Origin: Escherichia coli
Lineage (GTDB): Bacteria; Pseudomonadota; Gammaproteobacteria; Enterobacterales; Enterobacteriaceae
Assembly: GCF_013122565.1 (NCBI RefSeq)
Contig: NZ_CP053258.1
Reading direction: 5' to 3' (one strand)
Length of the DNA: 64,000 nucleotides
A program made the translations under genes and the position numbers. This document shows, piece by piece, positions 2,682 to 52,698 of this stretch (its first letter is position 1; every line of letters starts with the position of its first letter). The notes under the pieces are model-generated. The model was not told the origin of the DNA and searched no databases. It saw only the letters and a list, made by a program, of their open reading frames with translations.

Positions 2682-3692
2682 ATGAAGGCTGCAGTTGTTA
2701 CGAAGGATCATCATGTTGACGTTACGGATAAAACACTGCGCTCACTGAAACATGGCGAAGCCCTGCTGAAAATGGAGTGTTGTGGTGTATGTCATACCGA
2801 TCTTCATGTTAAGAATGGCGATTTTGGTGACAAAACCGGCGTAATTCTGGGCCATGAAGGGATTGGTGTGGTGGCAGAAGTGGGTCCAGGTGTCACCTCA
2901 TTAAAACCAGGCGATCGTGCCAGCGTGGCGTGGTTTTACGAAGGATGCGGTCATTGCGAATACTGTAACAGTGGTAACGAAACGCTCTGCCGTTCAGTTA
3001 AAAATGCCGGATACAGCGTTGATGGCGGGATGGCGGAAGAGTGCATAGTGGTCGCCGATTACGCGGTAAAAGTGCCAGATGGCCTGGACTCGGCGGCGGC
3101 CAGCAGCATTACCTGTGCGGGGGTCACCACCTACAAAGCCGTTAAGCTGTCAAAAATTCGTCCAGGGCAGTGGATTGCTATCTACGGTCTTGGCGGTCTG
3201 GGTAACCTCGCCCTGCAATACGCGAAGAATGTCTTTAACGCCAAAGTGATCGCCATTGATGTCAATGATGAGCAGTTAAAACTGGCAACCGAAATGGGCG
3301 CTGATTTAGCGATTAACTCACGCACTGAAGACGCCGCCAAAATTGTGCAGGAGAAAACCGGTGGCGCTCACGCTGCGGTGGTAACAGCAGTAGCTAAAGC
3401 TGCGTTTAACTCGGCAGTTGATGCTGTCCGTGCAGGTGGGCGTGTTGTGGCAGTCGGTCTGCCGCCGGAGTCTATGAGCCTGGATATCCCACGCCTTGTG
3501 CTGGATGGCATTGAAGTGGTCGGTTCTCTGGTCGGCACGCGCCAGGATCTAACCGAAGCCTTCCAGTTTGCCGCCGAAGGCAAAGTGGTGCCGAAAGTCG
3601 CCCTGCGTCCGTTAGCGGACATCAACACCATCTTTACCGAGATGGAAGAAGGCAAAATCCGTGGCCGTATGGTGATTGATTTCCGCCGCTAA
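2682..3692 (+). CDS. adhP: Zn-dependent alcohol dehydrogenase, propanol-preferring (336 aa)
   Basis: Track ORF 2652..3692; start at MKAAVV with AAGGAGGAA SD; GHEGIGVV and CGHCEYC zinc-ADH motifs. Confidence 0.93.
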
Positions 3693-3837
3693 GAGGCCTT
3701 TGCTGCGACTGCCATGTTCGGGTCGCAGCATCGCACACTCTCCAACATGAAATGGCTAAATGGATTATTGTTGCGTAGGAAGGAACAATAATGATAGTGT
3801 TCCCAGAGAAGGAACGCTACTGAGAGTAAAGACACTA

Positions 3838-4122
3838 ATGAAAATGGCCAATCATCCCCGCCCGGGGGACATTATTCAGGAATCACTGGACGAACTTAAT
3901 GTCAGCCTGCGCGAGTTTGCCAGAGCAATGGAAATTGCTCCCTCAACGGCAAGCCGATTGCTGACAGGAAAAGCAGCTTTGACGCCAGAAATGGCAATTA
4001 AACTTTCCGTGGTGATCGGCAGTTCGCCGCAAATGTGGCTGAATCTGCAAAACGCCTGGAGTCTGGCAGAGGCTGAAAAAACGGTGGATGTGTCGCGATT
4101 ACGCCGTCTGGTTACGCAATAA
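3838..4122 (+). CDS. yddM: HigA-family XRE/HTH antitoxin-like regulator (94 aa)
   Basis: Track ORF 3760..4122; 94-aa form starts [56 protein letters not shown] (HTH). No toxin partner visible upstream. Confidence 0.75.
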
Positions 4123-4174
4123 AAAAATGGAACTTTATAAAGCGCCATTTAGAACTGATGACAAACGCAACATT

Positions 4175-4290
4175 GCCTGATGCGCTACGCTTATCAGGCC
4201 TACATGTTCACTGCAATCTATTGTATTTGAAGGGTTTGTAGGCCGGATAAGGCGTTCACGCCGCATCCGGCATGAACAAAGCCTACGTTG
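4175..4290. repeat. REP/BIME-type extragenic palindromic repeat cluster
   Basis: gcctgatgcgctacgcttatcaggcctac and ggccggataaggcgttcacgccgcatccggca, typical E. coli REP units, in the convergent yddM/fdnI gap. Confidence 0.6.
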
Positions 4291-4350
4291 TCTACAATAT
4301 GAAAATGACGCCTTTTACAGCGCCATTTTCAGCTTAAAGTTCAAAAGAGA

Positions 4351-5004
4351 TTATATCCCTTCTTCACTCTCTTTTTTCGCTTCTGCCTTCTCGATTTCAC
4401 GATACCAGCGCGGATGGTGTTTCTTCGCCCAGCGACGGCTCACCTTCCCTTCGATCATCCCTTTAATCGATCCTTTCACCCAGAATGCCATATACATATG
4501 GATCAGGATGGCGTGGATCAGGATGATACCCGCAGCCGCGTGGATCAGCAGGCTGTAGCGAACAACTTGCATCGGGAAGTACTGCGCAAAGTACGGACGC
4601 CAGATAATTACCCCGGTCACCAGCAGCACAAAAATCATACTCATGATTGACCAGAACATCATCTTTTGCCCGGCGTTGTACTTACCAACATCCGCCACTT
4701 TATGCTCATTGCCTTTCAATACTTCGACAATGTTCAACAGCCACGGAATATCTTTCTTATCCGGGATGTTGTGATGCACAAAACGCACAAACATAAACAT
4801 CAGCGCGACGAAAATCGCAATGCCGAAGAACGGGTGCAAAATGCGTCCCATCTGCGGCGTACCGAAGGTTTGCGTCAGCCATTGCAGCGTCGGGAAGAAG
4901 AACGAAATCCCGGACAGCGCCACCAGGAAGAAGCAAATCACCACGGTCCAGTGACAGGCGCGATCAATAAATTTGGTGCGCACAATCATTTTCGACTTAC
5001 TCAT
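4351..5004 (-). CDS. fdnI: Formate dehydrogenase-N gamma subunit, cytochrome b556 (217 aa)
   Basis: Track ORF 4351..5046; 217-aa form starts [19 protein letters not shown]; hydrophobic helices with His ligands; overlaps fdnH stop by 8 nt. Confidence 0.92.
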
Positions 5005-5881
5005 GATGATCCTCCTCGTCATCGTCCACTTCCTTATTCGGGCCAATACCGATGTAGTGGAAAATCAACCCGGCAAAAGTGGCAATAAAGCCAGCCGCTG
5101 CCAGCGGTTTCAACGCGCCTTTCCACAGGCTTACCGAGGTGTCGATCTTCGGATCTTTCGGCAGACCGTGATACAGCTCCGGCTGATCGGCGTGATGCAG
5201 CACGTACATAACGTGCGTACCACCGACCCCTTCCGGGTTGTAGACGCCAGCATGTTCGTAACCACGCGCTTTCAGTTTCGCCACGCGCTGTTCCGCCAGC
5301 TCCAGCATCTCCTTCTTGGTGCCGAAGTGGATAGCCCCGGTCGGACAGGTTTTCACACAAGCCGGTTCCTGGCCGACGCTGACGCGATCGACGCAGAGCG
5401 TGCATTTATATACCCGGTTATCCTCTTTGTTGAGGCGCGGAATATTAAACGGACACCCGGCAATGCAGTAACCACAGCCGATGCAGTTTTCCGACTGGAA
5501 ATCGACAATCCCGTTAGCGTACTGAATGATTGCACCAGCAGATGGGCACGCCTTCAGGCAGCCGGGATCTTCACAGTGCATACAGCCGTCTTTACGGATC
5601 AGCCACTCCAGCTTGCCGTTCTGTTCGGTTTCGCTAAAGCGCATCACCGTCCAGGACTTGGCGCTCAGATCGGCGGGGTTATCGTAAACCCCGACGCAGT
5701 GCCCCACTTCATCACGGATGTCGTTCCACTCCGAACACGCCACCTGACAGGCTTTACAACCGATACAGGTGGAAACGTCGATAAGCTTCGCGACTTCTGC
5801 TTTGTAATCACGCACCTGAGAAGGCGGCGTGATGGAGTTAGTTGCGGACCTTTTGATAATGTCCTGCGTTTCCATAGCCAT
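4997..5881 (-). CDS. fdnH: Formate dehydrogenase-N beta subunit, 4x[4Fe-4S] (294 aa)
   Basis: Track ORF 294 aa; multiple CxxCxxCxxxCP ferredoxin motifs ([45 protein letters not shown]). Confidence 0.93.
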
Positions 5882-5893
5882 CTGTTCGCCCCC

Positions 5894-8800
5894 TTACGCC
5901 TTCTCGATGTTGACTAAGAACGCTTTATATTCCGGCGTTTGCGAGTTTGCATCACCGACATTCGGCGTCAGAGTGTTAGCGATATAACCTTTACGCGCGA
6001 CACCCTCAAAGCCCCAGTGGATCGGAATACCCACCGTTTCAACCTGCTGACCATTTACATTCAGCGGTTTCAGACGGCGCGTTACCACCGCCACCGCGCG
6101 GATAAAGCCACGCTTGCTTGAGACAGTGACACGATCGCCATTATTAATGCCTTTCGCCGCCGCCAGCGTTTCGCTGATTTCCACAAACTGTTCCGGCTGA
6201 GCAATTGCGTTGAGCAACGCGTGCTTGGTCCAGGTGTGGAAGTGCTCGGTCAGACGATAGGTCGTACCCACATACGGGAACTGCTCTTTTTTACCCATCC
6301 GCAGCGCGTCTTGTTCATACAGACGAACGACCGGGTTAGACACCACGTTCGGATGCAGCGGGTTAGTGCCCAGCGGCGTTTCAATCGGCTCGTAGTGTTC
6401 CGGGAACGGACCTTCCGCCATTTTGTTGATGGCAAACAGGCGTCCCATCCCTTCCGGCTGCATGATAAACGGCCCGGTTGGCGTACCCGGTGCGGCATTG
6501 CCGAAGTCCGGAATATCGTTACCCGTCCACTTGCTGCCGTTCCACTGGATCAGCATCCGTTTCGGATCCCACGGTTTACCGTTGATATCCGCCGAAGCAC
6601 GGTTGTAGAGTACGCGACGGTTGAGCGGCCACGCCCAGGCCCATCCCAGCGTATTCCCCAGACCGGACGGGTCGGAGTTATCGCGGTTAGCCATCTGGTT
6701 GCCCTGCTCTGTCCAGCTACCGGTGTAGATCCAGCAAGAAGATGCGGTTGTACCGTCATCACGCAGATGCGCAAAGCTACTCAGCAACTGACCTTTCTTC
6801 GCAATCAGCACGCCATTTGCGTCATAGAGATCTTCCAGCGCATAGCCGTTGTTCTCTTTTGCCACTTCGTCAGATTGCGGTTCGTGCGGCTGCTTGTAGT
6901 TCCAGCTCATCTTCATCAGCGGTTCTACGCCTTTACCACCTTCGGCCTGGTACAGCTCGCGCAGATGATGGTAGATACCCGCCAGAATTTCGCCGTCGTT
7001 ACGCGCTTCGCCCGGCGCGTCCTGACCTTTCCAGTGCCACTGCAACCAGCGACCGGAGTTAGCGATAGAACCATCTTCTTCGGCAAAGCAGGTCGAAGGC
7101 AGACGGAATACTTCAGTCTGAATAGACGCCGGATCGACATCGTTCGACTCGCCGTGGTTCTGCCAGAAGGTAGAGGTTTCAGTCACCAGCGGATCGATAA
7201 CCACCATGTACTTCAGCTTGCTCAGGCAGCTCACCACTTTGTTTTTGTCCGGGAAGGACGCAACCGGGTTAAAGCCCTGGCAGAAATAACCGGTGACTTT
7301 GCCTTCGTCCATCATGTTGAAATACTTGATGACGTCGTAGGTCTGGTCCCACTTCGGCAGCCAGTCATAGCCCCAGTTGTTCTCTTTCTGCGCGGCATCG
7401 CCATAGAAAGATTTCATCAGGCTAACGAAGAACTTCGGATAGTTGCTCCAGTAGTTCACCTGATCAGCCAGCGTCGCTTTCGGCGTGTTCGCTTCCAGAT
7501 ACGACTGCAAATCAACCTGTTTTTCTGACGGCAGCGTCAGATAACCTGGCAGGCTGGTAGAGAGCAGGCCTAAGTCAGTCAGGCCCTGAATGTTGGAGTG
7601 ACCACGCAATGCGTTCACGCCGCCACCGGCCATACCCATGTTACCGAGCAGCAACTGGATCATCGCCATAGTACGGATGTTCTGCGCACCCACGGTGTGC
7701 TGCGTCCAGCCCAGCGCGTACAGGAAGGTGGTTGTGCGATCCGGTGCGCTGGTGGAGGCCAGCACTTCACACACTTTCAGGAAGTCGGCTTTTGGCGTAC
7801 CGCAGATGTTTTCAACGACGTCCGGCGTGTAGCGGGAAACGTGCGCTTTCAGCAGGTTCCACACACAGCGCGGATGAGTCAGTGTTTCATCGCGTTTCGC
7901 ATAGCCGTTTTCATCGAACTGATAGTTCCAGGACGATTTATCGTATTGCCGTTTTTCAGCGTCGTAGCCGCTGAACAGACCGTCTTCGAAAGCAAAATCA
8001 TCACGCACCAGCAGGCTGGCGTTGGTGTAATGCTTAACATATTCGGCGTTGATTTTGTTGTTTTCGATCAGGTAGCGCAAAACGCCAGACAGGAACGTAA
8101 TGTCCGTACCGGAACGAATAGGTGCGTAAATATCCGCCACAGAAGCGGTACGCGTAAAACGGGGATCGACAACGATCAGGGTTGCATCGTTGTTGTTTTT
8201 CGCTTCCATCGCCCAGCGGAAACCGACGGGATGCGCTTCCGCAGCGTTACCGCCCATTACCATTACGACGTTAGCGTTTTTGATATCCACCCAGTGGTTG
8301 GTCATCGCACCGCGACCAAATGTTGGAGCAAGACTTGCTACCGTTGGTCCGTGTCAGACGCGCGCCTGGTTGTCTACCGCCAGCATCCCGAGGGAGCGGG
8401 CAAATTTCTGGGTCAGCATCCCGGTTTCGTTGCTGGCACCGGAGGCACACAGCATACCGGTAGAAAGCCAACGGTTTACCGTTACGCCCTGCTCGTTCTT
8501 TTCAATAAAGTTAGCGTCACGGTCAGCTTTCATCAGCTTCGCAATACGGGTGAATGCTTCTTCCCAGCTAATGCGCTGCCATTTGTCAGAACCTGGCGCA
8601 CGATATTCCGGGTAGCGCAGACGGTTTTCGCTGTTGACGTAATCCAGCAAACCGGCCCCTTTCGGACACAGCGCACCACGGCTTACCGGATGATCCGGGT
8701 CACCTTCAATGTGATAAATCGCTTCTCTGGCGTTTTTCGCGCCATCACCCAGGCTATACATCAATAGCCCGCAACCTACGGAACAGTATGTGCAGGTGTT

Positions 8801-8941
8801 ACGGATCTCTTTAGCGCGTAATAATTTGTAGTTTCGCGCCTGAGCCAGTGCTTGCTTCGGGGCAAAGCCCAATGCCGCTACTGTTGTTCCAGCCATACCG
8901 CCCGCGCAGATTTTAAAAAATTGTCTGCGACTGACGTCCAT
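5894..8941 (-). CDS. fdnG: Formate dehydrogenase-N alpha subunit, selenoprotein (1015 aa with Sec at codon 196)
   Basis: Two track ORFs (8354..8941 and 5894..8305) in the same frame, separated only by TGA at 8354-8356, with no stop in the 16 codons between. Twin-arginine signal MDVSRRQFFK. Molybdopterin oxidoreductase. Confidence 0.92.
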
Positions 8942-8989
8942 TGCTTTCCTCTTTTTTCAGGGGTATTACTGCGCGAGGAAACTAACAGT

Positions 8990-9085
8990 AAAATTCTGAA
9001 TCTTTTTGCGCGAAATCAAAAAGAACACGTGTTTGCCACAAAATAATCCGCCTGCGCAAATTGACCTACCTCAATAGCGGTAGAA
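8990..9085 (-). promoter_or_regulatory. Putative fdnG promoter region with FNR-like and NarL 7-2-7-like sites
   Basis: Top strand TTGCGCGAAATCAA (bottom strand TTGATttcgCGCAA, FNR-like half-site pair) near 9007-9020, and inverted heptamers TACCTCA-at-AGCGGTA near 9067-9082. Matched by eye to consensus; fdnGHI is known to be nitrate/anaerobically induced. Confidence 0.4.
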
Positions 9086-9172
9086 AAACGCACCACTGCC
9101 TGACAGGCCAGTTAAAAAAATGCTATAAAATTCAGCTTAATTTTTAACGGCAAGAGAGACAAAACAGCGAGC

Positions 9173-10054
9173 ATGACACGACAAAAAGCAACGCTCATAG
9201 GGCTAATAGCGATCGTCCTGTGGAGCACGATGGTAGGATTGATTCGCGGTGTCAGTGAGGGGCTCGGCCCGGTCGGCGGTGCAGCTGCTATCTATTCATT
9301 AAGCGGGCTGCTGTTAATCTTCACAGTTGGATTTCCGCGTATTCGGCAAATCCCGAAAGGCTATTTGCTCGCCGGGAGTCTGTTATTCGTCAGCTATGAA
9401 ATCTGTCTGGCGCTTTCATTAGGGTATGCGGCGACCCGTCATCAGGCGATTGAAGTGGGTATGGTGAACTATCTATGGCCCAGCCTGACAATTCTCTTTG
9501 CCATTCTGTTTAATGGTCAGAAAACCAACTGGCTGATTGTACCAGGATTATTATTAGCCCTCGTCGGCGTCTGCTGGGTGCTAGGCGGTGACAATGGGTT
9601 ACATTATGATGAAATCATCAATAATATCACCACCAGTCCATTGAGTTATTTCCTGGCGTTTATTGGTGCGTTTATCTGGGCAGCCTATTGCACAGTAACG
9701 AATAAATACGCACGCGGATTTAATGGAATTACCGTTTTTGTCCTGCTAACGGGAGCAAGTCTGTGGGTTTACTATTTTCTCACGCCACAACCAGAAATGG
9801 TATTTAGCACGCCCGTCATGATTAAACTCATCTCTGCGGCATTTACCTTAGGATTTGCTTATGCTGCATGGAATGTCGGTATATTGCATGGCAACGTCAC
9901 TATTATGGCGGTAGGTTCGTATTTTACGCCCGTACTTTCCTCAGCGCTTGCAGCCGTGCTGCTCAGCGCCCCGCTGTCGTTCTCGTTCTGGCAAGGCGCG
10001 CTAATGGTCTGCGGCGGTTCCCTGCTCTGCTGGCTGGCGACACGTCGTGGTTAA
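9173..10054 (+). CDS. yddG: Aromatic amino acid exporter, DMT superfamily (293 aa)
   Basis: Track ORF 293 aa, polytopic membrane protein; position downstream of fdnG as in K-12. Confidence 0.88.
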   Translation: MTRQKATLIGLIAIVLWSTMVGLIRGVSEGLGPVGGAAAIYSLSGLLLIFTVGFPRIRQIPKGYLLAGSLLFVSYEICLALSLGYAATRHQAIEVGMVNYLWPSLTILFAILFNGQKTNWLIVPGLLLALVGVCWVLGGDNGLHYDEIINNITTSPLSYFLAFIGAFIWAAYCTVTNKYARGFNGITVFVLLTGASLWVYYFLTPQPEMVFSTPVMIKLISAAFTLGFAYAAWNVGILHGNVTIMAVGSYFTPVLSSALAAVLLSAPLSFSFWQGALMVCGGSLLCWLATRRG

Positions 10055-10313
10055 AATAACTGCCGGGTCTACGGCCCGGCAGTTAATCAGATAAATTCCG
10101 ACAATATTAAAAAAATAAACTTCAAATACCAGTAATTCACCTTATATCTCATTTCGACTTCGATCACATATCGATAAATAATATTATTTCATCTATTTTT
10201 CTCATTGTTTTTAATCACCGTTCTATTTTAAAAACAGTATGTCATTTATAAATGACGCCGTTTAAAATTCGTTTAGAAAATACGTTTAACGATAATTAAA
10301 AGGATTCTGTTAA

Positions 10314-11414
10314 ATGAAATTAAAAATAGTTGCGGTGGTTGTAACTGGTTTGTTAGCTGCGAACGTAGCACACGCTGCCGAAGTCTATAACAAGGATGGT
10401 AATAAACTCGACCTTTATGGCAAGGTTACCGCTCTACGTTATTTTACTGATGATAAGCGTGACGATGGTGATAAAACTTATGCCCGTCTCGGCTTTAAAG
10501 GAGAAACGCAAATCAATGATCAAATAGTTGGTTTTGGTCACTGGGAATATGATTTTAAAGGCTATAACGATGAAGCCAACGGCTCGCGCGGCAACAAGAC
10601 CCGTCTGGCCTATGCAGGTTTAAAAATTAGTGATTTTGGCTCTCTGGACTATGGTCGTAACTACGGTGTCGGCTATGACATTGGTTCATGGACCGATATG
10701 TTGCCAGAATTTGGTGGCGATACCTGGAGTCAGAAAGATGTCTTCATGACATACCGTACCACCGGTGTAGCAACCTATCGCAACTACGATTTCTTTGGCT
10801 TAATTGAAGGGCTGAACTTTGCCGCGCAATATCAAGGCAAAAATGAACGTACTGACAACAGTCATCTTTATGGTGCTGACTACACGCGCGCCAACGGTGA
10901 CGGTTTCGGTATCTCCTCAACTTATGTTTATGATGGCTTTGGTATCGGTGCGGTATATACCAAATCTGATCGGACAAATGCGCAGGAAAGAGCCGCTGCT
11001 AATCCTCTCAATGCCTCCGGTAAGAATGCAGAACTGTGGGCTACAGGTATAAAATATGGTGCCAACAACATCTACTTTGCAGCTAATTACGCTGAAACAT
11101 TAAACATGACCACCTATGGCGATGGTTATATCTCGAACAAAGCACAAAGTTTTGAAGTGGTGGCGCAATATCAATTCGACTTCGGCTTGCGCCCATCACT
11201 CGCTTACCTGAAATCGAAAGGCAGAGATCTGGGCCGCTACGGCGACCAGGACATGATTGAGTATATCGACGTTGGTGCGACGTATTTCTTCAACAAAAAT
11301 ATGTCGACCTATGTTGATTATAAAATCAACCTGATTGATGAAAGCGATTTTACCCGTGCCGTAGATATTCGCACCGATAACATCGTCGCTACGGGCATTA
11401 CCTATCAGTTCTAA
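10314..11414 (+). CDS. yddL: General porin, OmpC/OmpF/PhoE family (366 aa), intact
   Basis: Signal peptide [27 protein letters not shown], porin-typical GxxYxF beta-strand periodicity and C-terminal ...GITYQF. Symbol is by position; this locus is a pseudogene in K-12 as I recall. Confidence 0.85.
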
Positions 11415-11426
11415 CATCCTCTCCTG

Positions 11427-11452
11427 ACCAGCCCTTCTCTGGGCTGGTTTTT
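11427..11452 (+). terminator. Rho-independent terminator after porin gene
   Basis: Stem accagccc / gggctggt with loop ttctct, followed by TTTTT. Confidence 0.6.
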
Positions 11453-11583
11453 GATGTAAGTGCTGCTGTATGAATCCTTAAGTAAAAATGAGCAATTTTT
11501 GATATTTCTGAACATTCACCTCAATTAATATTATTCCATACCCTCCGGGGACATCTTACTATAATATTTATTGATGAGTGATT

Positions 11584-25268: not shown

Positions 25269-25334
25269 AGAATCATATGCAGCAACCAGGTTGCTTAAGC
25301 AATATTTCCATATGAGTTAAAAGCATATTTTATC

Positions 25335-25801
25335 TCACGATTGCATATTTTTAGTGAAGATTACTTTATCCTCACCAACATCATAGTAATTGCGTATTAT
25401 CGCCTCATTGATAAAGCCCTGTTTTGTATAAAATGCGCGGGCGGCACTAAAATCGATATGGCTAGAGGTCTCTACTAAAAGTAGTCTAGCCTGTTTAATT
25501 GTGAGTTTTTTTCTATTTCGTTGATCAGCAGATGTCCCACTCCCTGGCGCTGATGGGAAGGACTGATCCAGAGCAATAATAAATTCCAGACATCATTTGT
25601 CATCACTTCAGGAGCACAATAGGCAATCCCTGCCAGTCCTAAGTGTTCTGCACTAAACCATAAATCGGCAGATTGACCTGAGAAATAATGTGTTAGTGTT
25701 TTTTGTACATGATGAAGGCCATCTTGATCAAATTGTCCACTGGCAAGCAGCATATCCAGTAATGGTTCAACATCTGAAGGTTTGACTGGTCGTATAAACA
25801 T
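25335..25801 (-). pseudogene. GNAT-family N-acetyltransferase interrupted by a frameshift at an A7 homopolymer
   Basis: Track ORF 25475..25801 (108 aa, ends ...HQRQGVGHLLINEIEKNSQLNRLDYF*) is the N-terminal part. The next frame continues from the A7 tract (top-strand T7 at 25506-25512) as KKLTIKQARLLLVETSSHIDFSAARAFYTKQGFINEAIIRNYYDVGEDKVIFTKNMQS* to a stop at 25335, a RimI-like GNAT C-terminus. One extra A would restore a ~157-aa protein. Confidence 0.6.
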
Positions 25802-26094
25802 GGAATTCCTTATCTATTTATGAATGTTTGAAAATTGTTTGCGTGGAACACGGTCAATCTGAAGTCAATATTTTTGAGAAAGAATAGATGGGTATTTATA
25901 TAAACAAAGAAGCCATTTCTTTAAATATTAATTAAAGTATAACATTAACACCGGACTTCATTGCGACAGGACACGACAAAGCAATTTTGCGGTTTTTTCA
26001 GGGTGCATTACAAAAATTGAATCCTTTATGGACTAATGTGAGAAAATTACGAGGCATAACTATTTTGATATAGTGGACAATCAAGCGTCTCGAA

Positions 26095-26847
26095 TTAACA
26101 ATGACTTTCAGATGCTAAACCATGCAATTGGTAGTATGTCGGATATAGGACAACATTAGGAAATCGGACAGAAAATTCAGCATAATAAAATGACAACTTA
26201 TCTCTTTCTCTCACTTTCTGAGAAATTTCACAAAAGTATAAACTGAGCCAATATGCCTTTATATATAAAAAATACTCATGCTTATTTTTATCGGAAAAAG
26301 CCAAAATTGTGTCAAGTCCATCAAAAATATCTTTATCATGATTTATATGTACTCTTGATGAATTTACAATATCTTTTAATTCGCGGTAAATCTTATTAAA
26401 TAGCGCAACCGATTCACTGTTATTGAATCCATAGTTGATAAAAAGACATGATTTAACATCCGATATTAGTAAGTCGTCATAATCTATCTCAATTCCACAC
26501 AATTTCACGATATACTCAGCTATAGTATTACTTTGCAAGGACTCAACAACTGACAGTAAAACAGATGGATGCAATAATATTTCAAGAAGACTTCTGTCGA
26601 TATTTTTATACACGTTTATTGCAAATTCATCACTCGTCCCATCGATGGTGTCAGATATTAAAAAAAATACATACTCGGGGAGTTCATACCACATATTAAT
26701 TTTAATAATATCACGACACGTATCTTCTAACTGTTGTAATCTATTACCTTTATTCATAACAACCTTAATGTTATTATATGGAATCTTTAGCGTAATCTTC
26801 TTAACTCCGAGGAATTTTACTAAACCGTTGTTAGAGAAAATATGCAT
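26095..26847 (-). CDS. Hypothetical protein (250 aa), AT-rich island ORF of unknown function
   Basis: Track ORF; AT-rich, Asn/Ile/Lys/Tyr-rich; own upstream region of ~270 nt containing a 10-bp inverted repeat. No family recognised. Confidence 0.55.
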   Translation of the reverse strand: MHIFSNNGLVKFLGVKKITLKIPYNNIKVVMNKGNRLQQLEDTCRDIIKINMWYELPEYVFFLISDTIDGTSDEFAINVYKNIDRSLLEILLHPSVLLSVVESLQSNTIAEYIVKLCGIEIDYDDLLISDVKSCLFINYGFNNSESVALFNKIYRELKDIVNSSRVHINHDKDIFDGLDTILAFSDKNKHEYFLYIKAYWLSLYFCEISQKVRERDKLSFYYAEFSVRFPNVVLYPTYYQLHGLASESHC

Positions 26848-27115
26848 ATCACTGACAGCGTGTTATTAATTCACTCTGGTGTTATATAACAAAAATATCC
26901 CCTCCTGTTTTCACCTCTTTGTATTCATGATAGTTAAGGGGAGTGCTAACTTAATATAACACCTGTATTTTCTCACTTTTAGCAAAAACACAAGTTTACT
27001 AAAGAACATAACATTACTGGTTAAACTGTAAAAACAATTGATAACGAAGAGCATCATAAGTTAATAATTTGATTGTTTTCAATGCATTATTACAACTGCA
27101 TTCAGAAGTATATTT

Positions 27116-27676
27116 TTACATAAAGTGTTTATTGATGATTTTTACCAGTTCATCTTTTGCAATAAGCTCTATATTTAAATTAACACACTCAACAATCTGA
27201 AGAAATGTGTCACTTAGTATATGTTCATGATCACCTTTCGTATGCATTTTGACAAAAAGGCCAAAAGATGCGCGAACAAAAGATATCTCGGGGTTATCCC
27301 ATGTAAACCATCGTACTCCACCACCTTCATTCATATACTCCCTTATTCTATGCTGTTCATTATTAAAACTTGAAAAATTAACGTTTTTTTCAAAGAAGGC
27401 ATTTTGCGCTAAAGATATTATTTTCCTGGATAATTCATTACAAACACGAGGGTTCGTGTCAAGAATAAATACCATTACATCAAGTGTAAAATGACGTATT
27501 TTATCTATATTTTTCCTTTTCATTGGTCCTAGCAATGAACCGTAAACTTTATCAATACGTTCATCAAGCAATCTTACCATATTTTTTCTTTCTATTTCGA
27601 TGTAATAATCTGGTTGATTATGTATCCCGCTATTATTTTGATGGTTCATTGTTTTAATTTTTTTGCTTTTTTTCAT
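27116..27676 (-). CDS. Hypothetical protein (186 aa), AT-rich island ORF of unknown function
   Basis: Track ORF; GAGG SD 4 nt upstream of ATG; Lys-rich N-terminus MKKSKKIKTMNHQNNSG; no family recognised. Confidence 0.55.
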   Translation of the reverse strand: MKKSKKIKTMNHQNNSGIHNQPDYYIEIERKNMVRLLDERIDKVYGSLLGPMKRKNIDKIRHFTLDVMVFILDTNPRVCNELSRKIISLAQNAFFEKNVNFSSFNNEQHRIREYMNEGGGVRWFTWDNPEISFVRASFGLFVKMHTKGDHEHILSDTFLQIVECVNLNIELIAKDELVKIINKHFM

Positions 27677-27783
27677 TGTTACCTCGTTGTGTCATGATTT
27701 TAGTAGTGGATGAAAAATAACACCGACTCATCAGATTTTAATTAAGTTTTCATGTTGGCTAATTCGTTTGAAGAGTTACTACT

Positions 27784-28206
27784 TTATTCAATCCAGTAAG
27801 CTAGTCGCTCTCCAGAGCTTAGATTTTCCCTTTTGTAATAAAATACTGTATCGAAATTAAGTGAAATGGTTTCTGCTATAACTTTAAACTGTAATATTGA
27901 CTCGGAATAAAACTCGAGAACAATATTAGCATCATTATTATCATTGATTATTTTTAGTTTCATAAAATCATCAAGAGGATCACAAGTCCAGTACGTATCA
28001 CCACTCATGTAAGATGGTGCATTTATTATTATTTCAAAATTATGATAATAAGAAAGATCACTACTGCCAACGATAATTAATCGCCCATTACTATAGAGAT
28101 AAATTTCAAAATCTATCCAACAGTTATTTCTGTAATTACGCCTGATTTCGTCCACTACATTTTGTTGTTTCATTTTGGATACTTGTAAAATATAATTACT
28201 ACGCAT
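27784..28206 (-). CDS. Hypothetical protein (140 aa), AT-rich island ORF; possible immunity-type protein
   Basis: Track ORF; starts 44 nt after the upstream ORF stop; no family recognised. Confidence 0.5.
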   Translation of the reverse strand: MRSNYILQVSKMKQQNVVDEIRRNYRNNCWIDFEIYLYSNGRLIIVGSSDLSYYHNFEIIINAPSYMSGDTYWTCDPLDDFMKLKIINDNNDANIVLEFYSESILQFKVIAETISLNFDTVFYYKRENLSSGERLAYWIE

Positions 28207-28250
28207 TGATAAAGTGATATATGATCTTATATAGGTCGCACCTGTAAAAT

Positions 28251-28583
28251 TTAAAATGTGTTAACTTCCCTTCTTAACAATACAAACCCCTCAAGGCTTA
28301 ATATTTTATTTTTTAACTCATCATGCCTGATCGTATCATTGATATAGAGAAGATAAGTATACTCAGGATAATCGACCTCATCCACTACACCATCCAAAAC
28401 ATCATAATTTTCTTTTAGAAGAAAATGTTCATGGCTTTTGTCTCCGGACAATAAATAGATTCCGCCATAATAAAGGCTTTCTTTCTCTTTAAATGTGATT
28501 TTTATTACATCTTCTAACATCTTCAGCGCATCATAGATTCCTACTCCAGAATATCCATACAAGTCATAATAACTCATTCCCAT
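28251..28583 (-). CDS. Hypothetical protein (110 aa), AT-rich island ORF; possible immunity-type protein
   Basis: Track ORF; AGGTG SD; starts 21 nt after the upstream ORF stop (operon-like coupling); acidic, Tyr-rich. Confidence 0.5.
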   Translation of the reverse strand: MGMSYYDLYGYSGVGIYDALKMLEDVIKITFKEKESLYYGGIYLLSGDKSHEHFLLKENYDVLDGVVDEVDYPEYTYLLYINDTIRHDELKNKILSLEGFVLLRREVNTF

Positions 28584-28604
28584 TTCACCTGTTTGAATTT
28601 GTAT

Positions 28605-28877
28605 TCATTTACCCTCACGGGATTTAGTAATTACATTCAGCAGTGGCTTTAAGTGTGATGTTACAAAACTATCACGCCTTTGCTCAATTATCATTTGGAT
28701 ATACTGTTTTGTATCAGTGTTACCATACTTAGCCATATAGAACATTACTGCGTCCATTATATCTCTTTCATAGTTTTCTATTGCATCAACATAGACATCA
28801 ACCAGAGTATTAACTTCTTTATTTGATGGATGTTCTGAAAGATTACTCTCAAATTGTGAGAATCTGAATCGTACCAT
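28605..28877 (-). CDS. Hypothetical protein (90 aa), first ORF of the AT-rich island next to yncG
   Basis: Track ORF; occupies the slot where K-12 has yncH/rhsE; no family recognised. Confidence 0.45.
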   Translation of the reverse strand: MVRFRFSQFESNLSEHPSNKEVNTLVDVYVDAIENYERDIMDAVMFYMAKYGNTDTKQYIQMIIEQRRDSFVTSHLKPLLNVITKSREGK

Positions 28878-29143
28878 TACGATTCTCTTAGAAATATCAT
28901 TAAATACGCTACCGCCCTACCCTGATAACATGATCTGCACGGCGCTATCATATCGGTATGTTTCTCTATATGCGAAAAGATGTTTTATTTTCAGATTAAA
29001 TCAAATAGATATTTAATATAAAAAACGAAATTTCATCAATCATATAAATAGTTGTACTAACTTCAATTACCATTCATAGCAAACAAATAGACGCCCAGTT
29101 AACTTTGCCGATGATTTATTAACATTAATCTCCGGCATTATTG

Positions 29144-29761
29144 TTAAATAATGGCATTCCTTTTTAGTACTTCTTGTAACTTTGGTATCTGACATACAGC
29201 ATCAGCAATCGCACTGATATTCGTGGCATTATCCTGAAACCATTCATGCCCAGGCCCCCATGTGCGCATAGTGCAAAGATAACAGTCCACCAGCGTTAGT
29301 TGCTCACCAAACGCATAAGGTTCAGCGGTCAATTGTGAATTCAGCCAGATATAAAGCGATTTACGATATTCAATAACATTCTCCTTTAACTGTTCGGGTG
29401 CGTCAGGAGCCCAACGCTCAGGGTAATCGGCGAAAGTGAATGTTGGATAGACATTAGCAACCAGCCAGACCAATAGCCGTTGAAACTGCTGACGTTCGGC
29501 GCGCCCAACCGGTGGCACAAGGTCCGGGCGACGATCGAGAACCATCAATGCAATCGCCGCTGTCTCCGTCATAATCTCGTCATTTTCCAATGCCAGTGTC
29601 GGAACCTGGCACAACGGGTTCAGGGTTTTCAATAACTCGCGTGAAGCTCCCTCGTGGTCAAAACCACTGACATCAACGAACTGATAAGGAATATCAGCCA
29701 GTGTTAGCATCAGCTCACTGATTGTAGAGCCCCATCCGGGTACGCCATACACCTTAATCAT
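29144..29761 (-). CDS. yncG: Glutathione S-transferase homolog (205 aa)
   Basis: Track ORF 205 aa; MIKVYGVPGWGSTISELMLTLADIPYQFVDV is a GST N-terminal thioredoxin-like fold. Confidence 0.88.
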   Translation of the reverse strand: MIKVYGVPGWGSTISELMLTLADIPYQFVDVSGFDHEGASRELLKTLNPLCQVPTLALENDEIMTETAAIALMVLDRRPDLVPPVGRAERQQFQRLLVWLVANVYPTFTFADYPERWAPDAPEQLKENVIEYRKSLYIWLNSQLTAEPYAFGEQLTLVDCYLCTMRTWGPGHEWFQDNATNISAIADAVCQIPKLQEVLKRNAII

Positions 29762-47263: not shown

Positions 47264-49225
47264 TTACCCTTTTCGCTTCGGCAATGTTTTCAGCAGCTCA
47301 TCCGGACTTACGGATGCCACTACGCTTCCCGGTAACGGCATTTTCAGTATGTGATTTTTGATTTTGCCAATGACGTGCATCTCGCATGGGCGGCAATCAA
47401 ACTTTAGCGTTAATACTTCATCGCCGTTAACCAGTTGCATTGGCGTCGCCTTCCAGCTTTTGATATTGCCTTTCGCCTGTTTCGGGCACAGATTAAAGGC
47501 AAAGCGCAGACAATGCTTGGTGATCATCACCGGGACTTCGCCCTTCTCTTCATGTGCCTCATACGCCGCGTCAATCAGCTGCACACCATAGCGATGATAA
47601 AATTCACGCGCTTTCTGGTTGTAAACGTTCGCGAGGAAACTCAGATGCGTTTGCGGATAAACCGGCGCAGGATCAGCAACCGGTTTACGGCTGCCGCGCT
47701 GGTAACTGGCAAGACGTGCAGCATCCAGCATGTCGGCGGCTTCGCGGCGGAACTGGTTTAACAGACTGTTTGGTACAAACAGCGCACCCGGCAAATTAAT
47801 TTGCACATCGCGGGCGTAATAGAGGGTTTGACCCAGTTTTGCAAGGCCATCCTTTAGATTGTTCATTGCTTTTTCGGCGTTATTGGCTTCGTCGAACTGC
47901 CCGTCCAGCGTATGCGTGATGCTGACACCCTCTTCACTGGTGAGGGTCAGAATCAGTTGTTCCTGCCAGCCGCCCAGTTCAATGTCTACCGCCACCCGAC
48001 GTTCGCTGGAGGTTTTTGTCAGTGCCTGCTGCCAGTTATGATCAAGATTACGGTTTAGTGGGTGATGCGGGCGAATTTTGTGCAAATCTGCTGGCATTTC
48101 ATTGGGCCAGACGCGGTACTGATTTTCTCCGGTTTTCTCGACCGTATTGGCACGAAAACCGACGACTTCACGTTTAATCAACACGTTCAGGCCATCGCCA
48201 TTTGCCAGTGGCTCGGTAACGGCAACATCGAGATGATCTTTCGCCACTTTCACTACTTCACCTACCGGCAGGCCGATAAATTTCGGCGAATCGAACGCGC
48301 CAATATCGCCTTTACGGGCATTCACAAAATAATCTGTGCTACCACGGTGGAAAGTCTTTTCCGTCGATGGAACAAAGAAATGTTCAGTACGACCTGATGA
48401 AGCGCGCGCCAGATCGCCACGTTCTTCAATAATGGCATCAAGCATCTGGCGATAATGGGCGGTGATATTCTTCACGTAGCTCATATCTTTGTAACGCCCT
48501 TCAATCTTGAAGGAACGTACGCCAGCATCAATCAGCGCGCCGAGGTTGGCAGTCTGATCGTTATCTTTCATCGACAGCAGATGTTTTTCATAGGAAACCA
48601 CCCGCCCCTGATCGTCTTTCAATGTGTATGGCAAACGGCACGCTTGCGAGCAATCGCCACGGTTGGCGCTACGCCCTGTTTGCGCATGAGAAATGTAGCA
48701 CTGACCCGAATAGGCCACGCACAGTGCGCCATGAATAAAGAATTCAATGGTCGCGTCCGTGGCCTGGTGAATCGCGCGGATCTGATCAAGATTCAGCTCT
48801 CGCGCCAGCACAATCTGCGTGAAGCCAACATCAGAGAGGAACTTCGCTTTTTCTACTGTACGAATGTCGCACTGCGTACTGGCGTGCAGTTCAATCGGCG
48901 GAATATCAAGTTCCAGAATCCCCATATCCTGAACAATCAGCGCATCGACGCCGGTCTGGTAGAGGTCGGTAATCAACCGTTGCGCGGGTTCCAGCTCATC
49001 ATCATGCAAAATGGTGTTAAGCGTGACGAAAATTTTTGCACCATAACGATGGGCAAACGGCACCAACTCGGCAATATCTTTCAGGCTATTACTGGCATTA
49101 TGACGGGCACCAAAACCAGGGCCGCCGATATAAACAGCATCGGCACCGTGCAAAATAGCTTCGCGGGCAATGGCGGCATCGCGTGCCGGGCTTAACAGTT
49201 CAAGTCGATGAGAAGATACGGTCAC
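47264..49225 (-). CDS. ydcP: Peptidase U32-family protein, collagenase-like (653 aa)
   Basis: Track ORF 47264..49267 (667 aa, GTG start); 653-aa form from in-frame GTG at 49225 chosen by recalled K-12 length; cysteine-rich U32 core CVAYSGQCYISHAQTGRSANRGDCSQACR. Confidence 0.82.
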   Translation of the reverse strand: MTVSSHRLELLSPARDAAIAREAILHGADAVYIGGPGFGARHNASNSLKDIAELVPFAHRYGAKIFVTLNTILHDDELEPAQRLITDLYQTGVDALIVQDMGILELDIPPIELHASTQCDIRTVEKAKFLSDVGFTQIVLARELNLDQIRAIHQATDATIEFFIHGALCVAYSGQCYISHAQTGRSANRGDCSQACRLPYTLKDDQGRVVSYEKHLLSMKDNDQTANLGALIDAGVRSFKIEGRYKDMSYVKNITAHYRQMLDAIIEERGDLARASSGRTEHFFVPSTEKTFHRGSTDYFVNARKGDIGAFDSPKFIGLPVGEVVKVAKDHLDVAVTEPLANGDGLNVLIKREVVGFRANTVEKTGENQYRVWPNEMPADLHKIRPHHPLNRNLDHNWQQALTKTSSERRVAVDIELGGWQEQLILTLTSEEGVSITHTLDGQFDEANNAEKAMNNLKDGLAKLGQTLYYARDVQINLPGALFVPNSLLNQFRREAADMLDAARLASYQRGSRKPVADPAPVYPQTHLSFLANVYNQKAREFYHRYGVQLIDAAYEAHEEKGEVPVMITKHCLRFAFNLCPKQAKGNIKSWKATPMQLVNGDEVLTLKFDCRPCEMHVIGKIKNHILKMPLPGSVVASVSPDELLKTLPKRKG

Positions 49226-49297
49226 ATTCTTATCCAGTAGCTGAAAAATGGCGGCTATTTTAGCCACAAGCGCGACGTTGCGAAATAGTTTTCCCGC

Positions 49298-49834
49298 TTA
49301 ACTGCGCGGGTAATGGATGAGGGAATGAAAATGTACGGTTTGCTCCCCACCATTACGATAGACATGCGTGACGTCTGCAGCAAATCGAACGCCTTCCCCA
49401 CAATTAAGGCTCTGCCATTCACCATCAACGCACAGATCAAGTTGTCCATCAATGACGACGACATGTTCGATTACCCCCTTCTCATGGGGCGTCGATTCGC
49501 TTATTGCACCGGGTGCCATCTGAATCGAGAAGTGTTCAAAGCAGAGTTGTGGATCATAAGGAAACAGCGAAATGATCACCATCGCCTGCTGTTGTGGATC
49601 ATAAACTGAAGGCGTAGCGGACTGTGGCGGAGAAATAAATGTCGAAAATGGCACGTTCAACCCAGTGGCAATTTTCCATAATGTCGCGACCGTCGGGCTG
49701 GACTCATTACGCTCAATCTGCCCTAACATCGCTTTAGAAACGCCCGTCGCTTCTGCCAGTCGCGAAAGACTCCAGCCGCGCTGCTGGCGTAGTTGTTTAA
49801 GTGTGGTGGATAAAAAGCGAGCGAGATTTTCCAT
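49298..49834 (-). CDS. ydcN: XRE-family HTH regulator with C-terminal cupin domain (178 aa)
   Basis: Track ORF 178 aa; N-terminal HTH LRQQRGWSLSRLAEATGVSKAMLGQIERNESSPTVATLWKIA. Confidence 0.85.
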   Translation of the reverse strand: MENLARFLSTTLKQLRQQRGWSLSRLAEATGVSKAMLGQIERNESSPTVATLWKIATGLNVPFSTFISPPQSATPSVYDPQQQAMVIISLFPYDPQLCFEHFSIQMAPGAISESTPHEKGVIEHVVVIDGQLDLCVDGEWQSLNCGEGVRFAADVTHVYRNGGEQTVHFHSLIHYPRS

Positions 49835-49925
49835 GCGACTCCTCCGGCAAAACGGAAGTTTATCACTTGTGCGTTATAACGGACAAATGCTACGGTGCCT
49901 GTACGCTATAACGCACGAGGTGACT

Positions 49926-51098
49926 ATGCGTCTGTTTTCTGTTCCTCCACCCACGCTACTGGCGGGGTTTCTGGCGGTATTAATTGGCTACGCCAGTTCA
50001 GCGGCAATAATCTGGCAAGCAGCGATTGTCGCCGGAGCCACCACTGCACAAATCTCTGGCTGGATGACGGCGCTGGGGCTGGCAATGGGCGTCAGTACGC
50101 TGACTCTGACATTATGGTATCGCGTACCTGTTCTCACCGCATGGTCAACGCCTGGCGCGGCTTTGTTGGTCACCGGATTGCAGGGACTAACACTTAACGA
50201 AGCCATCGGCGTTTTTATTGTCACCAACGCGTTAATAGTCCTCTGCGGCATAACGGGACTCTTTGCTCGTCTGATGCGCATTATTCCGCACTCGCTTGCG
50301 GCGGCAATGCTTGCCGGGATTTTATTACGCTTTGGTTTACAGGCGTTTGCCAGTCTGGACGGTCAATTTACGTTGTGTGGAAGTATGTTGCTGGTATGGC
50401 TGGCAACCAAGGCCGTTGCGCCGCGCTATGCGGTAATTGCCGCGATGATTATTGGGATCGTGATCGTTATCGCGCAAGGTGACGTTGTCACAACTGATGT
50501 TGTCTTTAAACCCGTTCTCCCCACTTATATTACCCCTGATTTTTCGTTTGCTCACAGCCTGAGCGTTGCACTCCCCCTTTTTCTGGTGACGATGGCATCG
50601 CAAAACGCACCGGGTATCGCAGCAATGAAAGCCGCCGGATATTCAACTCCTGTTTCGCCATTAATTGTATTTACTGGATTGCTGGCACTGTTTTTTTCCC
50701 CTTTCGGCGTTTATTCAGTCGGTATTGCGGCAATCACCGCGGCTATTTGCCAAAGCCCGGAAGCGCATCCGGATAAAGATCAACGTTGGCTGGCAGCTGC
50801 CGTTGCAGGCATTTTCTATTTGCTCGCAGGTCTGTTTGGTAGTGCCATTACCGGGATGATGGCTGCCCTGCCCGTAAGTTGGATCCAGATGCTGGCAGGT
50901 CTGGCGCTGTTGAGTACCATTGGCGGCAGTTTATATCAGGCGCTGCATAATGAGCGTGAGCGCGACGCGGCGGTGGTGGCATTTCTGGTAACGGCAAGTG
51001 GATTGACGCTGGTCGGGATTGGTTCTGCGTTTTGGGGATTAATTGCCGGAGGTGTTTGTTACGTGGTGTTGAATTTAATCGCTGACAGAAACCGATAA
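49926..51098 (+). CDS. ydcO: BenE-family membrane transporter (390 aa)
   Basis: Track ORF 49665..51098 has an implausible N-extension; ATG at 49926 gives MRLFSVPPPTLLAGFLAVLIGY, divergent from ydcN. Confidence 0.82.
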   Translation: MRLFSVPPPTLLAGFLAVLIGYASSAAIIWQAAIVAGATTAQISGWMTALGLAMGVSTLTLTLWYRVPVLTAWSTPGAALLVTGLQGLTLNEAIGVFIVTNALIVLCGITGLFARLMRIIPHSLAAAMLAGILLRFGLQAFASLDGQFTLCGSMLLVWLATKAVAPRYAVIAAMIIGIVIVIAQGDVVTTDVVFKPVLPTYITPDFSFAHSLSVALPLFLVTMASQNAPGIAAMKAAGYSTPVSPLIVFTGLLALFFSPFGVYSVGIAAITAAICQSPEAHPDKDQRWLAAAVAGIFYLLAGLFGSAITGMMAALPVSWIQMLAGLALLSTIGGSLYQALHNERERDAAVVAFLVTASGLTLVGIGSAFWGLIAGGVCYVVLNLIADRNR

Positions 51099-51124
51099 TA
51101 AAAAGCGCCATCTAACGATGGCGC
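51099..51124 (-). terminator. Rho-independent terminator after ydcL
   Basis: Stem gcgccatc / gatggcgc with loop taac, flanked by an A-run on the top strand (U-run for the minus-strand transcript). Confidence 0.55.
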
Positions 51125-51132
51125 GTCTGGAA

Positions 51133-51801
51133 CTACTTTTTGTTAACGTCAAACATGGTGGCATCGGTCGCCATGTCATCAATAACTTGTTTAATATTTT
51201 CGAAAGCCATTGGCGTACTTTCGTTATTCAGGTCTTTACCTTCGCCCTGACGAACGACTTTGATAACCGGTTTATTAGTCGCTGCATCAATCAGCTCACC
51301 TTCAAAATACAAGCGAGTATCCATGGTACGGTGGCCTGTAGCCATTTGCGTCCCCGCAACCACTAATGCAACAGGAACCACTTCATAGAATTGCAGCCCT
51401 TCTTTGCTGGTATCTACACCGGTAATGGCCCCACGGAAAATCAGACTACGCGGCCCCGCGGTGGTAACCAGTGGTTTACGCTGCGCTATCGCTTCTTTCA
51501 TTTCGGTGTTGGTATAGTTCAAAATTTTATCCAGAACTTTCTGCCCTACCTGGGTCGAAGGTTTCGGTACCGGATAATAAGTGATTGGGTTCCAGACGAT
51601 GCTGTCATATTTGCTTTGATCAAAACTCGGGTCTACCCAACGTAAAACCGGTTTACCTGTAGCCGAGGTTGTTTCTTTTAAATCAGAGTAATTGTTTAAA
51701 AAACCAGAATATTTATCTGGCTGGGTGATTTTAGAGGCACAACCAGACAGAGCCAACAAGCCGCATAAAGCTGCAACTTTCGCAAATGATGTGGTACGCA
51801 T
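51133..51801 (-). CDS. ydcL: Lipoprotein YdcL (222 aa)
   Basis: Track ORF 222 aa; lipobox LALSGC in MRTTSFAKVAALCGLLALSGCASK. Confidence 0.85.
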   Translation of the reverse strand: MRTTSFAKVAALCGLLALSGCASKITQPDKYSGFLNNYSDLKETTSATGKPVLRWVDPSFDQSKYDSIVWNPITYYPVPKPSTQVGQKVLDKILNYTNTEMKEAIAQRKPLVTTAGPRSLIFRGAITGVDTSKEGLQFYEVVPVALVVAGTQMATGHRTMDTRLYFEGELIDAATNKPVIKVVRQGEGKDLNNESTPMAFENIKQVIDDMATDATMFDVNKK

Positions 51802-52104
51802 GAATAGTTTCCTGAGATGATTATATTACTTTTTAAGTTATAGCAAAAAGCGCCGCTTCGTGTTGTGGCAAAAAAAGTGTTGGTGAAAATAAAATTTTTT
51901 AGCCCCTTTTCAGACGACATAGTCAATGCCGCAAAAGGGGCTAAGTCAATCATCAGTAGTTAAATTTCAGTAAGTTAAGCTGCTAAAAAACTTCGACTAC
52001 TGTGATTAATTTCACATCCCTTCGATAAAAAATATGCTTACCGAAAAGAAGGACAGTAAACCATCTCAGCGTGGGGAATTTTCACGCGCTTTGTTCTTAC
52101 CGGG

Positions 52105-52698
52105 TCATTTTTTACGTGCCAGCATCGTGGCGAAACGCAGTTTAATACGATTACCGTTGGCGTCGGTGCGGTGCAACTCGCCGACGTCTTCATTGTATTT
52201 CACCATCTCCAAGCCTTCGTAATATCGACGTAATTCTCCCTCTTTGAAGGCAAACGGGAAGCCGACGGTACATGGATAATCAGCGGTATCCATCGCCGCC
52301 ACAATCAGGTTGTAACCGCCAGGTTTAGTGCAACGTTGCATATTGGCAATCAGCCCTGGGATGGTTTTAGCCTCAAGGAACATCAGCACCACAGTCGAAA
52401 GAATAAAATCGTACTGTCCAGCAAATGTGAGGTTATTCAGATCAACGACCCGGGTGTGTAAATTATCCAGATTTTCAATAGATTTAATGCGCTCGACGTT
52501 GGCGATACTCATGGCATTTTTATCCCATGCGTCAACATCATAACCATTGGCTGCCAGGTAAAGACTGTTACGACCATTGCCACAGCCCAGATCCAGCGTT
52601 TTACCCGGTTTAACCACTTTCACCGCTTCCAGTACTTCAGAGTGTGTGCGGGTTAATTCATATTTATCAGTAAAATAGTTTTCGTCACGAATGATCAT
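52105..52698 (-). CDS. tehB: Tellurite resistance SAM-dependent methyltransferase (197 aa)
   Basis: Track ORF 197 aa; SAM motif [15 protein letters not shown]; overlaps tehA stop. Confidence 0.9.

Follow-up and report, generated by a model that had tools for sequence, protein, structure and literature searches.

The convergent genes ydcO and ydcL directly adjoin each other in the 64,000-nucleotide stretch of Escherichia coli DNA analysed here (hereafter the window), and their junction is very probably the ancestral, never-occupied form of a common insertion polymorphism, produced by a single insertion of the element IS609 and maintained by vertical inheritance. We infer both the single insertion event and the ancestral polarity of the empty state. 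The presence or absence of IS609 at ydcO/ydcL is an ordinary polymorphism that is already annotated and already known; IS609 is here an old, widely shared insertion rather than a laboratory peculiarity of K-12, and a useful by-product of the comparison is its exact target, the pentanucleotide TTTAT, with the insertion point inside the ydcO stop codon.

In the proposed scenario, IS609, which encodes a Y1 transposase (TnpA) and an RNA-guided nuclease (TnpB, named InsQ), would have inserted once and without target duplication, directly 3' of the TTTAT that closes the T-tract of the ydcL terminator. The insertion would have taken place in an ancestor of the lineage to which K-12, the B strains and the O104:H4-type strains belong, with vertical inheritance afterwards, and the lineage of the window, whose locus groups with those of O157:H7 and of West African baboon isolates, would have kept the original 34-bp spacer.

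Flanking genes and terminator hairpin

The ydcO gene lies on the plus strand (49926..51098, from the ORF list, the Pfam BenE domain and the RefSeq annotation of near-identical matches); its start is the one used in RefSeq, which gives 390 codons, while the longest ORF runs from 49665. It ends with its native TAA at 51096-51098 and encodes a BenE-family transporter (PF03594, E 4e-162). The ydcL gene (51133..51801, minus strand; ORF list, Pfam and homologue names) has its stop codon at 51133-51135 and encodes a 222-aa DUF3313 lipoprotein (PF11769, E 4e-63; homologues named DUF3313 or lipoprotein). Both gene names were taken from RefSeq genomes that are 96-99.6% identical across the junction. The exact YdcL sequence of the window is on record from one metagenome contig only.

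The two genes are convergent and their spacer (51099-51132) measures 34 bp, with one hairpin and no IS, which bears out the first-pass annotation in its statement that only a hairpin separates the two stop codons. This hairpin, at 51105..51124, has the form GCGCCATC-GTTA-GATGGCGC, i.e. a stem of 8 bp, 6 of them GC, closed by a GTTA loop, and its RNA fold reaches -16.7 kcal/mol (z = -2.9). Downstream of the stem, the minus strand reads TTTTTATTAT (51104-51095), so that a GC-rich stem-loop directly precedes a T/U-tract, as in a predicted intrinsic terminator for ydcL, and the consensus terminator scan matched this strand only. On the plus strand, which is the sense strand of ydcO, GTCTGGAACTAC comes between the stem and any T run, and the A-tract lies upstream of the stem. 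The hairpin had been described as a terminator shared by ydcO and ydcL: the hairpin itself is present, but because a T-tract follows the stem on the minus strand only, it is to be read as the terminator of ydcL and not as a symmetric, shared one. With its GC-rich 8-bp stem, 4-nt loop and T-tract directly after ydcL it resembles rho-independent terminators between convergent genes; unlike a bidirectional terminator it is one-sided, with no T-tract adjacent to the stem on the ydcO strand, and the consensus scan gives no support for termination in both directions. An Rfam scan of window positions 49000-53000 returned no catalogued sRNA or omega-RNA, its sole match being a sub-threshold miRNA attributable to chance. 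Beyond the convergent gene pair and the ydcL intrinsic terminator, the junction holds nothing functional.

Comparison with K-12 MG1655

The window corresponds, in reverse-complement orientation, to MG1655 positions of about 1556520 down to 1490253, with an identity of 96.7-98.7% depending on the block; this range, together with nearest complete genomes that reach only 99.0%, agrees with the earlier assignment to a non-K-12 lineage. Around the junction, window positions 29146-51097 correspond to MG1655 1526862-1504909 and window positions 51098-63998 to MG1655 1503160-1490253. The MG1655 interval that is absent from the window (1503161-1504908, 1748 bp) is exactly the annotated “insertion sequence:IS609”, which contains an intact insQ/tnpB (b1432, formerly ydcM) and a dead tnpA pseudogene, yncK (b4578); BW25113 has the same arrangement. 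The first-pass annotation had placed an IS609-family transposase gene (ydcM/insQ) between ydcL and ydcO in K-12 and had proposed a whole-window alignment to MG1655 as the check: the K-12 annotation agrees, the alignment breaks precisely at the annotated element, and the window lacks it.

The unoccupied insertion point falls between window bases 51097 and 51098 (51097..51098), within the stop codon of ydcO (TA|A), as placed by the break in the MG1655 alignment, a BLAST split at query position 498/499 and the identity of the flanks. In K-12 the left junction reads ...CCGATA|TTGACATCC and the right junction ...GCACCGG|ATAAAAAGCG (in a longer reading, ...AACCGATA|TTGACATCC... and ...GCGCACCGG|ATAAAAAGCGCC...). 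The 20 + 40 nt beside the window junction are identical to the K-12 flanks once these are joined, and the joined flanks reproduce window positions 51078-51137 base for base with zero duplicated bases. The window is thus the K-12 sequence minus its annotated IS200/IS605-family element; blastn gave no match to IS609 DNA anywhere in the 64-kb window, and neither a duplication nor a scar was present at the junction. A further difference from the K-12 locus is that ydcO retains its own TAA in the window. Since IS609 splits this stop codon, the K-12 protein gains one tyrosine: K-12 YdcO ends in ...DRNRY*, the right end of the IS supplying the TGA (TAT-TGA), versus ...DRNR* in the window.

IS609 and its target

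The TAM-type target of IS609 is the pentanucleotide 5'-TTTAT-3', found in the window at 51098..51102 on the minus strand (read from 51102 to 51098), as the end of the T-tract of the ydcL terminator, directly 5' of the would-be left end of the element. It was defined from four IS609 insertions that were read (ydcO/ydcL, ytfB-tetR, yajI and yfeD-gltX): at all four independent sites, ATAAA on the plus strand (TTTAT on the insQ-sense strand) adjoins the left, tnpA-side end, and the right-end flanks are unrelated to each other. With 279 copies of TTTAT in the window, the motif permits insertion but does not account for the use of this particular copy. The other hallmarks of the family were recovered as well. 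The K-12 junctions display neither target-site duplication nor terminal inverted repeats. The reference loci, outside the window, encode a Y1 (HUH) TnpA (Y1_Tnp, E 2e-41, for the intact tnpA of an O157:H7 copy of IS609) together with a TnpB/OrfB protein, K-12 InsQ carrying the HTH_OrfB_IS605, OrfB_IS605 and Cas12f1-like TNB domains of Pfam. Folding of the top-strand DNA revealed subterminal imperfect hairpins, of 9 bp at the right end (z = -2.5) and weaker at the left end (z = -1.2), both with a CCTTCAGGGC core. An Rfam scan of the K-12 IS609 locus gave no match, hence no catalogued omega-RNA. As far as these sequence features go, the window site is a typical IS200/IS605 target.

In every genome read, the tnpA of the ydcO/ydcL copy is dead, by different lesions: a T287G stop in K-12, REL606 and 13E0725, a 5-bp deletion in O104:H4 and a 1-bp deletion in O112ab:H8. 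The shared nonsense mutation was considered as proof of one ancient, dead insertion and was rejected, O104:H4 and O112ab:H8 having their own frameshifts and no T287G. The 402-codon ORF of insQ is intact in 8/8 IS609 copies, with about as many synonymous as non-synonymous codon differences, which suggests that some constraint may have acted on insQ after the loss of tnpA. The publications found on IS609 and InsQ mention them at the level of annotation, and one reports no transposition of IS609 in mutation-accumulation lines of K-12 (PMC5009759).

Distribution among complete E. coli genomes

The insertion had been regarded as specific to K-12, and this proved incorrect. IS609 with both flanks was found at ydcO/ydcL in 3252 of the 5426 complete E. 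coli genomes (about 60%), including K-12, REL606, HS, O104:H4 and O112ab:H8, a locus being considered as occupied when the K-12 IS609 with its 300-bp flanks was covered on at least 80% in one place. The contiguous junction, recognized by a match to the window junction or to an artificial “empty” K-12 junction, was found in 2135/5426 genomes (about 39%), among them O157:H7 strains and NRG 857C. These proportions mirror the choice of strains for sequencing and not natural frequencies. The site offers a clean marker that separates K-12/B/O104-type lineages from O157:H7, B2-type strains and the window strain.

Among the same 5426 genomes, those nearest to window positions 39001-63900 are the baboon isolate PapM-32-1 and the bovine isolate OkiPb01695 (99.0%), with O157:H7 at 98.7%; the lineage of the window strain is poorly represented among complete genomes.

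Of the best 40 empty-site genomes, EcN_Sk (NZ_CP172017.1) alone had flanks that exceeded 99.5% identity to K-12 (100%). Positions 5968-19805 of its extracted locus (about 14 kb) are 100% identical to MG1655 apart from three clean deletions, which remove exactly the 1748 bp of IS609, MG1655 1509242-1509685 (hicA and part of hicB) and MG1655 1492027-1493665 (hokB/sokB and the 5' part of trg).

Polarity of the empty site

In a neighbour-joining tree of the flanks, the five occupied alleles (K-12, REL606, 13E0725, O104:H4 and O112ab:H8) formed two adjacent subclades, and the empty alleles (the window, O157:H7, PapM-32-1, PapRG-06-5, NRG 857C, 2A, GN04592 and 2014C-3338) all fell outside them; this tree is built on 3.5 kb from a recombining species, its internal branches are short, and polarity rests on a within-E. 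coli comparison. The neighbours of the window in the tree are O157:H7 TR01 (99.3%) and two Gambian baboon isolates (99.1-99.3%). Between K-12 and 13E0725 the IS is 98.74% identical and the flanks 99.47% and 98.85%; the divergence of the IS is therefore close to that of its flanks, as expected under co-inheritance.

The same empty junction would be seen if the window lineage had once carried IS609 and had fixed its loss after a precise, scarless excision by TnpA. Peel-and-paste transposition restores the original sequence exactly (10.1101/2023.03.14.532601), giving the appearance of a never-occupied site, and the window junction has the layout of a donor joint, TTTAT followed by TATCGGTTTCTG. 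Moreover, since the tnpA lesions differ between lineages, with at least three separate inactivations, the ancestral insertion must once have had a working transposase, and excision was therefore possible. EcN_Sk also exhibits the exact 1748-bp loss on a K-12-identical background, but it was set aside as a natural excision: the 14 kb of K-12-identical sequence with clean hicA/hicB and hokB-trg deletions besides that of IS609 looks like engineered, or lab-derived and imported, DNA. Furthermore, every relative of the window that was sampled for this locus is empty and lies outside the occupied group, so that excision requires extra steps; IS609 was static in the K-12 mutation-accumulation lines cited above (PMC5009759); and, according to the published model, loss of the element is opposed by an intact TnpB (10.1101/2023.03.14.532601). 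We consider excision improbable.

Replacement by recombination, in which a strain of an occupied lineage received an empty ydcO-ydcL segment from an empty-site donor, appears very improbable. Recombination is frequent in E. coli, the identity to MG1655 varies between window blocks (96.7% to 98.7%), and 13E0725, which has the tnpA T287G of K-12 but flanks that group with those of O104:H4, attests to mosaicism at this locus; however, the 24.9 kb around the site are uniformly nearest to the same empty-site genomes (99.0-98.7%, in a single aligned piece), and the nearest relatives do not change at the junction. An assembly artefact, i.e. a collapsed or skipped repeat, is barely credible: assembly from short reads sometimes loses an IS element, with nothing here that points specifically to such a loss, but a dropped IS normally breaks the contig rather than leaving a seamless join, and the join in the window is base for base that of 2135 complete genomes. 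A site that was never occupied is the preferred reading of the window junction.

Outside E. coli, the locus of Citrobacter koseri contains genes for an EamA-family transporter and an AraC-family regulator between ydcL and BenE/ydcO (locus positions 3001-6669). Because of these two extra genes, C. koseri is not informative on the polarity of the empty and occupied states; on its basis, the direct abutment of ydcO and ydcL is not conserved outside Escherichia. The 90% cluster of YdcL homologues comprised E. coli names only. The hairpin pattern AAAGCGCCATCNNNNGATGGCGC was also tried as a route to loci from Escherichia outgroups and was rejected, the matches listed consisting of one repeat from an Oscillospiraceae MAG and scattered chance hairpins. 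More than 60 copies of the AAAGCGCCATCNNNNGATGGCGC-type hairpin were counted among the matches listed, over the contigs of MAG CALWWW01 (uncultured Oscillospiraceae, BRZ_BM__bin16); they are a dispersed repeat family, unrelated to the ydcO-ydcL site.

The junction as a putative TnpB target

Excision of IS200/IS605 elements is scarless and regenerates a “donor joint”, in which the TAM adjoins the right-end flank, and the TnpB of the element, with an RNA guide derived from the right end, is able to cut this joint (Meers et al., 10.1101/2023.03.14.532601); the TAM of Geobacillus TnpB2 is likewise TTTAT (10.1101/2023.03.14.532601). The window junction is like a donor joint in that its TTTAT runs straight into TATCGGTTTCTG, the right-end flank of IS609 in K-12, and unlike a joint made by excision in that it is probably the original target. 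A guide RNA composed of the 3' end of K-12 insQ and the right end of the element would be expected to match this junction, the putative guide match beside TTTAT being 16-20 nt, TATCGGTTTCTGTCAG... (within window positions 51078-51110). For another member of the family, H. pylori IS608, the TnpB is reported to be inert. The window thus provides a ready, natural “empty site” for tests of InsQ/TnpB activity in E. coli, as a predicted InsQ target only.

The terminator foot as a possible insertion hot spot

In STO_Bone2 (NZ_CP054161.1), an IS200C copy (net gain of 709 bp; positions 2000-2715 of the extracted locus) lies inside the same A5/T5 run (window positions 51100-51104), 3-5 bp from the insertion point of IS609. 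As read from the sequence of this locus, a second element of the IS200/IS605 family has reached the foot of the ydcL terminator independently. Because IS609 (in the K-12/B/O104 lineage) and IS200C (in STO_Bone2) landed independently within about 5 bp of each other, the terminator foot, with its hairpin and T-tract, might be a structural hot spot for the single-strand transposition of IS200/IS605 elements and not simply one TTTAT copy among many, an idea that we regard as doubtful. If it held, elements of this family would preferentially enter at terminator T-tracts that adjoin a hairpin, and the intact site of the window would be a natural substrate for a cleavage test with InsQ and its right-end guide RNA.

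Other differences between the window and K-12

The alignment to MG1655 also displayed the two further differences from K-12 that had been noted from the window alone, in the content of the rhsE locus and in the yddL/yddK/yddJ region. At the rhsE locus, 3.8 kb of the window (25303-29145), with several minus-strand ORFs of 90-250 aa, stand in place of a 6.4-kb K-12 interval (1526863-1533249; yncH, rhsE, ydcD, yncI, ydcC, pptA side), and megablast detected no similarity between this segment and the K-12 interval that it replaces. The yddL/yddK/yddJ region (window positions 10597-13097) exceeds its MG1655 counterpart by about 2 kb. The ORFs of the window measure 366 aa (10314-11414), 421 aa (11578-12843) and 417 aa (12906-14159) here; in their place K-12 has a yddL remnant of 96 aa, a yddK of 318 aa and a yddJ pseudogene. 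The gapC frame (window positions 63538-64000) is open for the 154 codons present, the codon-39 stop of K-12 being a lysine codon in the window; the window ends at codon 154, with the later K-12 lesions beyond this point, and the earlier description of gapC as intact is supported for these 154 codons only. Finally, two MG1655 alignment blocks overlap at window positions 4133-4328 (K-12 about 1552192-1552208, between fdnI and yddM), which indicates a duplication of about 180 bp, or an extra repeat copy, relative to K-12.
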